Source: Enterococcus pallens ATCC BAA-351
GTDB lineage: Bacteria; Bacillota; Bacilli; Lactobacillales; Enterococcaceae
Assembly (NCBI RefSeq): GCF_000407485.1
Contig: NZ_ASWD01000004.1
Location: forward strand, 259,429-283,428
Direction of reading: 5' to 3'
DNA length: 24,000 nt
The position numbers were made by a program, and so were the translations under genes. Positions 17,604-19,210 of this stretch are shown here, one piece after another (position 1 is the stretch's first letter; every line of letters starts with the position of its first letter). Under the pieces are notes generated by a model, which was not told the origin of the DNA, did no database searches, and saw only the letters and a program-made list of their open reading frames with translations.

Positions 17604-18455
17604 CTAATTGGGGCTATCCAGTTTATTTTGATACATTGTATGGACATAATCACTACTAGCAATGTTCCAATCTGAGAGTAGGTCTTTGGTTAAGTCATGC
17701 GCCTGCATTTCCGGCACAAGCTTATATAGAGCTCCTTTATTTTGATTCGCATAGGCTGAACTCAAGGAAATACTATCCAACAAGTTGGGGGTAACTTCAT
17801 TAGGCTGCAATACCTCCGAATAATAGAAATAACCTTTTTCGTAGTACCAATAGCTGCTTGTATTTACTGCTGGTGGACTACTTTGATCAAACACTTTCCC
17901 TGCTTCGAAATTCAGTTCAATCGCAGGTAGCGGCGTCATTCTTGTCCCTTTGTAAGGATACGTCTGATCCAATAAAACGACTTTCGCTTTGTAATGAGTA
18001 TTCGCATTCACACCATACGTGTTTCCGACAACCCATGTATCAGTTTTCTTTACATCAATCGTCGTTGCACTTGGTGTACCATATACCTTCAAATTCCCAT
18101 TGCCATCACCAGTCCCATGATTATCCGCTGTATCAGTTTCAAATCCTGCAAAGAATTCTTTGAGGGAGAGACGAACAATCGCTGGTACTTCACCAGTATT
18201 TCGCACACGAATATTCTTTTCCTTCGTCGTTCCAGGTGACCAATGAAAAACTTGACTAAAATCTTCCTCTACAATCGCTGATAGCTTTCGCTGATTCGCA
18301 TCAGTTCGATTAACACGCTCATCTGCTGAAGTGATCCAAGCATAGGTACTGCCAACAATCAAAAGAAAACTTAGCAAGAGGGAGAAGCAAGCAAACAAGC
18401 CTTTACTTTTGATAAACGTACGAAACAAATGACGCCGTTTTTCTTTTTGGTTCAT
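17604..18455 (-). CDS. TasA/BsaA/camelysin-like exported protein with a SipW-cognate-type signal peptide (283 aa).
   Basis: The h-region ends in VGSTYAWITSADERVNR (compare the G-T-[FW]-A-x-[FI]-x-D class motif of SipW substrates). Then come PGTTKEKNIRVRNTGEVPAIVRLSL, GYFYYSEVLQPNEVTPNLLDSISL and LVPEMQAH. Start at the ATG at 18455 (GAGGAGGAG SD), overlapping the upstream stop as ATGA. Confidence 0.75.
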   Translation of the reverse strand: MNQKEKRRHLFRTFIKSKGLFACFSLLLSFLLIVGSTYAWITSADERVNRTDANQRKLSAIVEEDFSQVFHWSPGTTKEKNIRVRNTGEVPAIVRLSLKEFFAGFETDTADNHGTGDGNGNLKVYGTPSATTIDVKKTDTWVVGNTYGVNANTHYKAKVVLLDQTYPYKGTRMTPLPAIELNFEAGKVFDQSSPPAVNTSSYWYYEKGYFYYSEVLQPNEVTPNLLDSISLSSAYANQNKGALYKLVPEMQAHDLTKDLLSDWNIASSDYVHTMYQNKLDSPN

Positions 18456-19210
18456 TCCTGCTCCTCCTCTCGCCGCTTTTTCCATAAGAACAAAGCAAGC
18501 AGTACCAGCAATAAGCCTGTCAGAAACATGTAGACAACTTGCTCCCCAGTTTGTGGCAAAAGCTTACTGCTGGAATTATTAGCTGCGGATGTACTTGGCT
18601 GTGTTCGTGGTAATTGACTGGAACTACCACCTGAAGTTATCGGTTCCTTAGAATCGGTTGGCTCGGTGGATGAACTAGGCTCAGTTGGTTGATCCTTTGT
18701 ACCTAAAAATGTCCAATAAAAATTCAAGGTACTTTTCTCTCGCAAATTTTCATTCGTTAGAGACGAATCTACCTTAAATTCAGCTACTAGCAATTTATCT
18801 GTACCATACTTGCATACACCTAACTCTAAAGGTGTCTTCGTCCAATCACGGTTAGCATCCCCTAGTAATGGTCCTTGATAGATTTCTTTTCCATCCAAAA
18901 TCAAGGTCATCGTAATATGATTTTCCCAAGCCACAGAACCTGTTGAGTCAATCTTTTCAACCAACATTCCTAATGAAAAGGGTTCTTCTAGATCCAAGCT
19001 GCGAATGGTAATCTCCTTTTCGTAGACATCTCCTGGGAGAATATCCACTAGATCAATGTAATATTCTCCCTCAGATGTGGCATACATGCCATCGGAATCC
19101 CCGATCACCATGCCGGGAGGAAGTGCTTTTGCCGCTTGTACTGCGTACGTGCCGCAAAAGAAGAAACAGAAACACAGGATACTGCTCAGTACTGTTATAA
19201 GTTTTCTCAA
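18452..19210 (-). CDS. LPXTG (LPQTG) cell-wall-anchored protein with one small beta-sandwich-like domain and a Ser/Thr/Pro-rich stalk (252 aa).
   Basis: TTG start. The signal peptide is MRKLITVLSSILCFCFFFCGTYAVQA|AKA. The C-terminus is LPQTG (18545-18559), then a hydrophobic segment, then KKRREEEQE, a canonical sortase sorting signal. The domain contains PGDVYEKEITIRS, echoing the PG...K.V.V.NTG motif of the neighbouring TasA-like proteins. Confidence 0.85.
   Translation of the reverse strand: MRKLITVLSSILCFCFFFCGTYAVQAAKALPPGMVIGDSDGMYATSEGEYYIDLVDILPGDVYEKEITIRSLDLEEPFSLGMLVEKIDSTGSVAWENHITMTLILDGKEIYQGPLLGDANRDWTKTPLELGVCKYGTDKLLVAEFKVDSSLTNENLREKSTLNFYWTFLGTKDQPTEPSSSTEPTDSKEPITSGGSSSQLPRTQPSTSAANNSSSKLLPQTGEQVVYMFLTGLLLVLLALFLWKKRREEEQE

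Follow-up and report, generated by a model that had tools for sequence, protein, structure and literature searches.

In biofilms of Bacillus and Clostridium, the principal protein scaffold consists of TasA-type fibres, whose attachment to the cell is unsettled: TapA of Bacillus subtilis binds non-covalently, and BsaA of Clostridium perfringens strain 13 appears to be held in the membrane. A subunit of the TasA fold that is anchored by a sortase would be a simple and testable candidate answer. The present study concerns a stretch of 24,000 nucleotides from Enterococcus pallens ATCC BAA-351 (contig NZ_ASWD01000004.1, positions 259,429 to 283,428; called the window below), in which a gene for a small LPQTG protein, here named the anchor, lies among three genes for BsaA/TasA-family subunits (Bsa). 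This gene probably encodes a dedicated cell-wall anchor subunit of a SipW-dependent surface fibre of the BsaA/TasA type, and such a subunit would connect two routes of export and assembly that are mostly considered separately.

Described systems and the E. pallens locus

Most C. perfringens strains, including ATCC 13124, carry the operon sipW-bsaA-bsaB[LPXTG]-bsaB-bsaC with srtB adjacent to it (Kivimaki et al. preprint, PMC11580942; Obana et al. 2020, PMC7395162). In the preprint on BsaA, each subunit is reported to insert its N-terminal strand into the next, where an Asn35-Lys74 isopeptide bond forms with the assistance of Glu56, and mutation of any one of N35, K74 or E56 abolishes the oligomers (PMC11580942). 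The same preprint predicts the N-E-K triad of BsaA in some Enterococcaceae, suggests that a sortase could link the LPXTG bsaB-like product to peptidoglycan, and presents a model in which growth is membrane-proximal and every newly secreted subunit takes up the free N-terminal strand of the polymer already formed (PMC11580942). Compared by description, the E. pallens cluster has the same order, which is SipW, a major BsaA-type subunit, an LPXTG protein, further Bsa-type subunits and a large adhesin-like protein, and its subunits have the same isopeptide triad. The two systems differ in that a class B sortase adjoins the C. perfringens operon, whereas none is found within 10 kb in the Enterococcus loci, and in that the large protein encoded downstream is of the VWA type in C. 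perfringens and unclassified and variable here. The experiments on the bsa system were made only in strain 13, whose LPXTG motif is lost.

The tapA-sipW-tasA operon of B. subtilis likewise encodes an accessory protein, TapA, next to SipW and the fibre subunit. TapA is wall-associated, the fibres depend on it for their start or their anchorage, and it is reported to act by strand complementation. It has no LPXTG motif, is not covalently anchored and is a SipW substrate whose N-terminus mimics that of TasA, whereas the anchor lacks a donor-like N-terminus. Basal pilins such as SpaB of Corynebacterium diphtheriae and EbpB of Enterococcus faecalis are, like the anchor, small LPXTG subunits, and tip adhesin, shaft and base are encoded together in both cases. 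Incorporation of a basal pilin is thought to end polymerisation, after which the housekeeping sortase transfers the fibre to peptidoglycan. In those pili a pilin-specific class C sortase joins subunits of CnaA/CnaB fold through Lys-Thr bonds, whereas the anchor comes with no class C sortase and no YPKN pilin motif, has a predicted TasA fold and would assemble by donor-strand exchange. PapH of chaperone-usher pili can engage only one side of the donor-strand chain, ends the cell-proximal growth and anchors the fibre; it is Gram-negative, usher-dependent and non-covalent, so the likeness is one of assembly logic and not of descent.

LPXTG and SLH anchors are also present in AbpX-like clusters, and AlphaFold 3 (AF3) predicts donor-strand complementation between the LPXTG anchor A0A1M6GRE1 of C. 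amylolyticum and an AbpX-like fibril subunit (bioRxiv 10.64898/2026.01.04.697558). By its description, that protein also has genes for TasA-superfamily subunits and for a dedicated signal peptidase beside its own; it belongs to the AbpX branch of the superfamily and its signal peptidase has ten transmembrane segments, which sets it apart from the E. pallens system.

Layout of the anchor gene

The anchor open reading frame starts with TTG, which is preceded at about 10 nucleotides by a Shine-Dalgarno-like GGGAGAA sequence. The protein has the layout of LPXTG surface proteins, with an N-terminal signal peptide and, at the C-terminal end, the LPXTG motif, a hydrophobic span and a positively charged tail (coordinates in Table 1). 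The signal peptide ends in an AXA site after residue 26 that is kept across the alignment of homologues, and would be cleaved between VQA and AKA. In the sorting signal, 19 mostly hydrophobic residues separate LPQTG from KKRREEEQE, and the region passes the curated cut-offs of both PF00746 (25.1 bits against 20) and TIGR01167 (28.7 bits against 15.9). The ordinary signal peptide and canonical sorting signal that the first-pass annotation of this DNA had described are therefore borne out. A six-frame scan of the window finds no other LPxTG-type sorting signal, in agreement with the claim that none of the three TasA-like neighbours has one.

The stop codon of the anchor gene (TGA, 18452-18454) overlaps the start codon of the next Bsa gene (ATG, 18453-18455) as ATGA, exactly as first described, and the two genes appear from this arrangement to be translationally coupled. 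The globular domain includes the N-terminal strand LPPGMVIGD with Asp38, the residue Glu49, the motif PG....K65.ITI, and Trp166 and Phe168. The last two belong to the FYWTF segment, which had been recognised as the end of the domain before the stalk, and they are invariant or nearly so across 97 diverse members of the anchor family. The length of the stalk that follows varies among the aligned homologues.

Fold of the anchor domain

In the full-length AlphaFold 2 (AF2) model of the anchor, residues 28-172 form a confident all-beta domain, the stalk is disordered and residues 223-251 form a helix at the C-terminus. The domain modelled alone, from an alignment of 107 sequences, reaches a mean predicted local distance difference test (pLDDT) value of 92.6 and a predicted template modelling (pTM) score of 0.86. 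Searched against the PDB with Foldseek, the domain model matches the TasA fibre subunit 8aur_A (E 1.8e-4, template modelling score of the query, TMq, 0.58), the Sulfolobus thread subunit 7pnb_A (TMq 0.55) and the archaeal bundling pilus protein AbpA, 7ueg_A (TMq 0.53), all with probability 1.00, and every other match has a TMq of 0.41 or less. The full-length model returns the same best two matches, 8aur_A and 7ueg_A. TasA fibres, AbpA pili and threads are all filaments made by donor-strand complementation, and the model thus assigns to the anchor domain a TasA-type beta-sandwich fold. The absence of any structural relation to that fold, which had been named beforehand as a ground for giving up the fibre hypothesis, is rejected by this comparison. 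The first-pass annotation had also set the anchor motif PGDVYEKEITIRS beside PG....K.V.V.NTG of the neighbours, and the two fall in the same register in independent profile-profile alignments.

No Pfam or NCBIfam model covers the domain in the window protein or in ten distant relatives, in which only the sorting signal is matched, and no TapA-type family is among the Pfam and NCBIfam matches of the anchor. A sequence search of the PDB with the profile of the anchor family gives nothing meaningful. The small LPXTG protein of WxL clusters (EF2685/EF0750, CscD-type; NF053819) was considered and rejected, as its model scores 39.8 bits against a cut-off of 47 and aligns only with the stalk and anchor residues 167-248.

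Relatives, gene order and natural fusions

A first search gave 104 homologues of the anchor, and those with names are nearly all from Enterococcus (E. pallens, ferrettii, moelleringii, caccae, silesiacus and others). The close set comprises 37 loci in about 20 Enterococcus and Vagococcus genomes, with one genome scanned per species. The order large Bsa, anchor, Bsa, Bsa is found in all 37 loci, with the contig of L018 breaking off within the first Bsa gene after the anchor. SipW is encoded upstream in 33 of them; the short contigs of the other four (L014, L015, L017 and L019) start only within the large Bsa gene. The large protein, a resolvase-like gene and a regulator come after the Bsa genes in most loci. 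The stop of the anchor gene overlaps the next start as [AG]TGA in 21/37 loci and is separated from it by a gap of 2-16 nucleotides in 14/37; in the remaining two (L024 and L029), no ATG start is found within 40 nucleotides of the stop.

The family extends far beyond this clade. An exhaustive phmmer search of 1.84 billion representative sequences, made with the domain alone, gives 151 clusters at 50% identity, nearly all of whose members have 210-280 residues and the layout of the anchor. A profile search of 5.8 billion proteins with 97 diverse members brought nothing new, the Enterococcus clade having filled its capped list of candidates. An xPxTG sorting signal, such as LPQTG, PPKTG, FPQTG or APKTG, is present in 88 of 97 diverse aligned members. 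Seven contigs with distant members (about 25-40% identity, G+C content 27-69%) were inspected, and in each a BsaA-family gene adjoins the anchor gene, and does so on both sides if the contig is long enough. One of them, L042, has the order SipW, Bsa, anchor, Bsa, Bsa, a VWA/GBS104-like Ig protein and a class B sortase; L043 has a regulator, SipW, Bsa, anchor, Bsa, Bsa, a VWA protein and a SpaA-domain protein; and L044, from Isobaculum melis, has SipW, Bsa, anchor, Bsa, Bsa, a coiled-coil protein and a glucosaminidase. Absence of co-conservation with the subunit genes, the other outcome that had been set in advance as refuting, is rejected by the 37/37 close loci and 7/7 distant contigs. The family also occurs in natural fusions: P0134, a metagenomic protein of 615 residues, consists of SipW with an N-terminal extension similar to that of the E. 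pallens peptidase and an anchor-family domain at its C-terminus, and in P0254 the anchor is joined to a BsaA-like domain.

In L042 (9207-9836) the class B sortase gene, and in L043 (13630-15801) the gene for the SpaA-domain LPXTG-type protein, follow the VWA protein in clusters of 27-33% G+C, a hint that in some lineages TasA-type components occur together with those of classical pilins. In L044, the glucosaminidase/LysM gene lies one gene past the last Bsa gene.

The coupling of sortase and SipW pathways in one structure had first been considered unusual. This view does not hold, since the module is widespread and has been noted in two preprints (PMC11580942; bioRxiv 10.64898/2026.01.04.697558); LPXTG partners in TasA-type operons are thus not a new idea in outline. 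Neither preprint describes the anchor family or the Enterococcus system. In public annotation the anchor is labelled only "cell wall protein" or "LPXTG cell wall anchor domain-containing protein". The family, of about 150 clusters spanning 27-69% G+C, is uncurated, with no Pfam or NCBIfam model.

Isopeptide residues and proposed role of the anchor

Residue conservation was counted over 38 clusters of the Enterococcus clade, and over the 97 diverse members for the wide family. The Asn, Glu and Lys of the isopeptide triad are present in 34/34, 36/36 and 36/36 sequences of the first of the three Bsa families, in 38/38, 33/38 and 35/38 of the second, and in 34/37, 36/37 and 36/37 of the third. The anchor has the acceptor half of this site: Lys65 (38/38) and Glu49 (36/38) align with K73/E56 and K80/E64 of its neighbours, and the spacing from Glu to Lys is 16 residues, compared with 15-17 in the neighbours and 18 in BsaA. 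All three neighbours have a conserved donor Asn (N45, N49 and N43), and none is found at the N-terminus of the anchor in the 38 clusters. The AF2 model has an N-terminal strand at residues 34-38, in a segment, LPPGMVIGD, which does not resemble the donor strands of the neighbouring Bsa proteins (W-I-T-x-x-D-x-x-[IV]-N).

For the incorporation of the anchor into the fibre, the polarity of the fibre, the isopeptide bond and the sortase step, we infer the following course. The anchor would be exported and its signal peptide removed, and its single TasA-fold domain would join the fibre by donor-strand complementation. Since Lys65 and Glu49 are kept and the donor Asn is lacking, the anchor could take up the N-terminal strand that the last subunit leaves free and stop growth, handing the fibre to the sortase; in the Enterococcus clade, Lys65 would lock the captured strand. 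Under the BsaA model, which places growth at the membrane-proximal end, an acceptor-only subunit of this kind would receive the last donor strand and end polymerisation, in the manner of basal pilins and of PapH. A sortase encoded elsewhere, presumably the housekeeping SrtA in Enterococcus, would cleave LPQTG between Thr and Gly and link the Thr to peptidoglycan, and the stalk of about 40 residues and the fibre would therefore project from the wall. That the anchor is, in this way, an acceptor-only base or terminator subunit is a plausible assignment from the residue pattern, which falls somewhat short of probable.

Several results weigh against this account. At the level of sequence, the anchor does not match TIGR04090 or PF12389 at E<=0.1, and its three neighbours do. 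HHalign with narrow alignments gives a probability of 67% that is driven by the signal peptides and falls to 3% after their removal; broad alignments without signal peptides give 48% (P 1.9e-4) over 33 columns, which cover only the motif E..PG....K.[IV].[IV].N. The anchor has the TasA fold and one shared motif, and stands outside the curated TasA and BsaA sequence families; its description as a fourth TasA-like family member thus holds for the fold, where TM scores above 0.5 are reached only with 8aur, 7ueg and 7pnb, and does not hold for membership by sequence. In the wide family, the Lys at position 65 is present in 74/97 members and replaced in 23/97, by Arg in 14, and the Glu at position 49 is present in only 29/97, so an isopeptide lock would be limited at most to a sub-clade. 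Conservation within the family is highest at the mature N-terminus, LPxGxxIGDxxG (Asp38 in 95/97, Pro31 in 92/97 and Gly41 in 96/97), and an acceptor-only model leaves this unexplained. The rearranged BsaB of C. perfringens strain 13 no longer has an LPXTG and is not found in covalent linkage to long BsaA oligomers, and deletion of bsaB still permits BsaA polymers.

The conserved N-terminus supports the main rival role, which the first-pass annotation had proposed, that of a wall-anchored nucleator and functional analogue of TapA. The first Bsa subunit would accept the strand LPPGMVIGD in its groove, its own strand would thereby be set free, and the fibre would grow outward from this covalently wall-fixed primer; as a variant, the invariant Asp38 might take part in a Lys-Asp isopeptide bond. 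The segment is the most conserved part of the family, stands at the donor-strand position of TasA, within about 12 residues of the mature N-terminus, is modelled as a confident beta-strand, and is paired by global HHalign, with low confidence, with the donor segment NDFQIG of the 214-residue Bsa. TapA, however, mimics the N-terminus of its fibre subunit, and the anchor strand neither resembles the Bsa donor strands nor has the Asn which all three neighbours donate. A nucleator would also leave the retention of Lys65 and Glu49 unexplained, and would not agree with growth at the membrane-proximal end. We regard nucleation as unlikely, and a base or terminator fits better with the kept acceptor residues, the absent Asn and the N-terminus.

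It is quite improbable that the anchor is a wall-anchored receptor or docking protein which binds fibres or the large variable protein laterally, or an independent small adhesin that shares only regulation with the cluster. Jelly-roll and Ig-like domains are common binding modules, the weaker Foldseek matches include carbohydrate-binding modules and the receptor-binding domain of diphtheria toxin, and the absence of the strain 13 BsaB from long oligomers would suit such a role. The only matches with a TM score above 0.5 are nevertheless subunits of donor-strand filaments, and the acceptor-site motif is kept in register. Translational coupling and an invariant place between subunit genes point to co-assembly in stoichiometric amounts, and the fusion of the anchor to a BsaA-like domain in P0254 is also at odds with a separate receptor.

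CapP of Bacillus cereus, which is wall-associated and controls the polymerisation of CalY/TasA (bioRxiv 10.1101/2024.02.27.582368), offers a precedent for a wall-retained chaperone or capping factor that would keep Bsa monomers competent for assembly or block premature polymerisation without being a permanent part of the fibre, and the anchor gene does lie inside the subunit operon. CapP has a different architecture and no LPXTG, and a covalently fixed TasA-fold protein, coupled 1:1 and with a long stalk, looks structural and not catalytic, which makes this role very improbable. A classical sortase-polymerised pilus, already discounted in the first-pass annotation, is rejected, since domain scans find no sortase gene in the window or within 10 kb in the 37 related loci, the anchor sequence has no YPK pilin motif and its fold is another, with no CnaB-type structure among the matches.

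With the anchor as terminal subunit, a wider proposal can be made, which we hold as possible and rather doubtful. Enterococci of the pallens/raffinosus group may build a third type of covalent Gram-positive pilus, in which donor-strand exchange and spontaneous intermolecular Asn-Lys isopeptide bonds polymerise the subunits without a pilin sortase, an acceptor-only LPXTG subunit ends the chain and the housekeeping sortase attaches it, with up to 15 paralogous cassettes serving as exchangeable adhesive fibres. If so, the chain would be covalent throughout, from the wall to the tip, and the cassettes would differ mainly in their large distal protein.

Neighbouring genes of the cluster

On the minus strand, the cluster begins with an uncharacterised protein cut by the end of the window and continues with a LepB-type signal peptidase, a small membrane protein, a glucosaminidase and the SipW-type peptidase. 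These are followed by the 445-residue Bsa, the anchor, the 283- and 214-residue Bsa, a protein of 1076 residues, a resolvase-N-like protein and a winged-helix regulator. The remainder of the window is a region of phosphotransferase system (PTS) and sugar-acid metabolism genes. The cut-off of TIGR04090 is 60 bits; the two longer Bsa proteins score above it and the shortest scores below.

Table 1. Features of the anchor and its gene cluster, in positions of the window
Feature	Position	Strand	Basis or remarks
Anchor gene, 252 residues	18452..19210	minus	signal peptide, predicted TasA-fold domain, stalk and LPQTG sorting signal
Anchor signal peptide, residues 1-26	19133..19210	minus	predicted cleavage between VQA and AKA
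Anchor globular beta-sandwich domain (modelled), residues 27-175	18686..19132	minus	AF2 model, Foldseek, conservation
Anchor disordered Ser/Thr/Pro-rich stalk, residues 176-217	18560..18685	minus	pLDDT <50 for residues 174-221
Anchor sorting signal: LPQTG (residues 218-222), hydrophobic segment, KKRREEEQE tail	18455..18559	minus	PF00746, TIGR01167
Large BsaA-family subunit, 445 residues, N45/E61/K76	19252..20589	minus	TIGR04090 64.1 bits, triad conservation, synteny
BsaA-family subunit, 283 residues from ATG at 18455, N49/E64/K80	17604..18455	minus	TIGR04090 72.9 bits
Small BsaA/TasA-family subunit, 214 residues, N43/E56/K73	16944..17588	minus	PF12389 23.6 bits, TIGR04090 51.5 bits
SipW-type (archaeal-type) signal peptidase I	20630..21583	minus	TIGR02228 70.7 bits; longest open reading frame to 21682
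Secreted protein, 1076 residues	13603..16833	minus	without Pfam match
Lipoprotein-like peptidoglycan glucosaminidase	21597..22670	minus	PF01832 110.8 bits; conserved in cluster
Second, LepB-type signal peptidase I	22971..23432	minus	PF10502 124.6 bits; present in 21/37 loci
Resolvase-N-domain-like protein, helix-turn-helix and C-terminal transmembrane segment	12675..13481	minus	PF00239 E 1.5e-5; 34/37 loci
Winged-helix (Trans_reg_C) regulator, cluster end	11899..12657	minus	domain match
Strong terminator-like hairpin after regulator	11858-11896		

The SipW-type peptidase likely starts at M34 (21583), a choice that is supported by the annotation of E. raffinosus, and it has an N-terminal cytoplasmic extension of about 130 residues rich in Arg, Glu, Tyr and Pro. 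Between its gene and the first Bsa gene lies a weak terminator-like hairpin (20611-20628, minus strand; a consensus match only), which might be an attenuator that sets different expression of the peptidase and the subunits. The glucosaminidase and the LepB-type peptidase are kept inside the cluster in the pallens/raffinosus group. The former could open the wall for the fibre, and the latter could process substrates that do not depend on SipW, such as the anchor and the large protein.

The 1076-residue protein is a mosaic, in which only the C-terminal 160 or so residues (914-1076) are common to all paralogues and the middle is replaced between copies; the first 100 or so residues are also shared among some paralogues. 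Neither a domain match nor an LPXTG motif was found in it. In the distant clusters, its position is occupied by VWA/GBS104-like proteins of the tip-adhesin type. Its conserved C-terminus was considered as a possible TasA-like acceptor domain; HHalign finds no similarity (probability 0.1%), and a homologue search gave only 2 proteins, not enough to model it reliably.

The three loci where the resolvase-like gene is missing are on contigs that end or diverge short of it. The motif GYARGYQITQQ suggests that the catalytic Ser of the resolvase-like protein is lost, and the protein could be a membrane-bound regulator or be linked to recombination of the cassettes. Between the cassettes of E. ferrettii it is 87-93% identical, far above the structural genes.

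Copy number and genomic setting

Candidatus Enterococcus ferrettii 665A has 15 copies of the cluster (L001-L013, L016 and L028), which make up about 5% of its genome. The cluster spans about 13-15 kb, and four of these copies are in tandem, about 15.6-19 kb apart. Candidatus E. moelleringii 669A has 8 copies (L014, L015, L017-L020, L022 and L023), several of them on short contigs that look like breaks of the assembly at the repeats. A comparison of the copies gives identities of about 90% for the flanking regulator-like genes and 45-90% for the structural genes, and the large protein is alike only in its last 160 or so residues. Such a multi-copy cluster is a natural system for the study of how fibre specificity diversifies.

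In a human faecal isolate of E. raffinosus, the cluster (L046) is carried on a megaplasmid of about 985 kb (NZ_CP081847.1, 440251-458700). Its presence on a megaplasmid of this human-associated species, and in 15 copies in one environmental Enterococcus genome, makes it a candidate determinant of colonisation or biofilm formation. A site-specific integrase gene lies just upstream of the megaplasmid cluster, and two further E. raffinosus megaplasmids also match the cluster.

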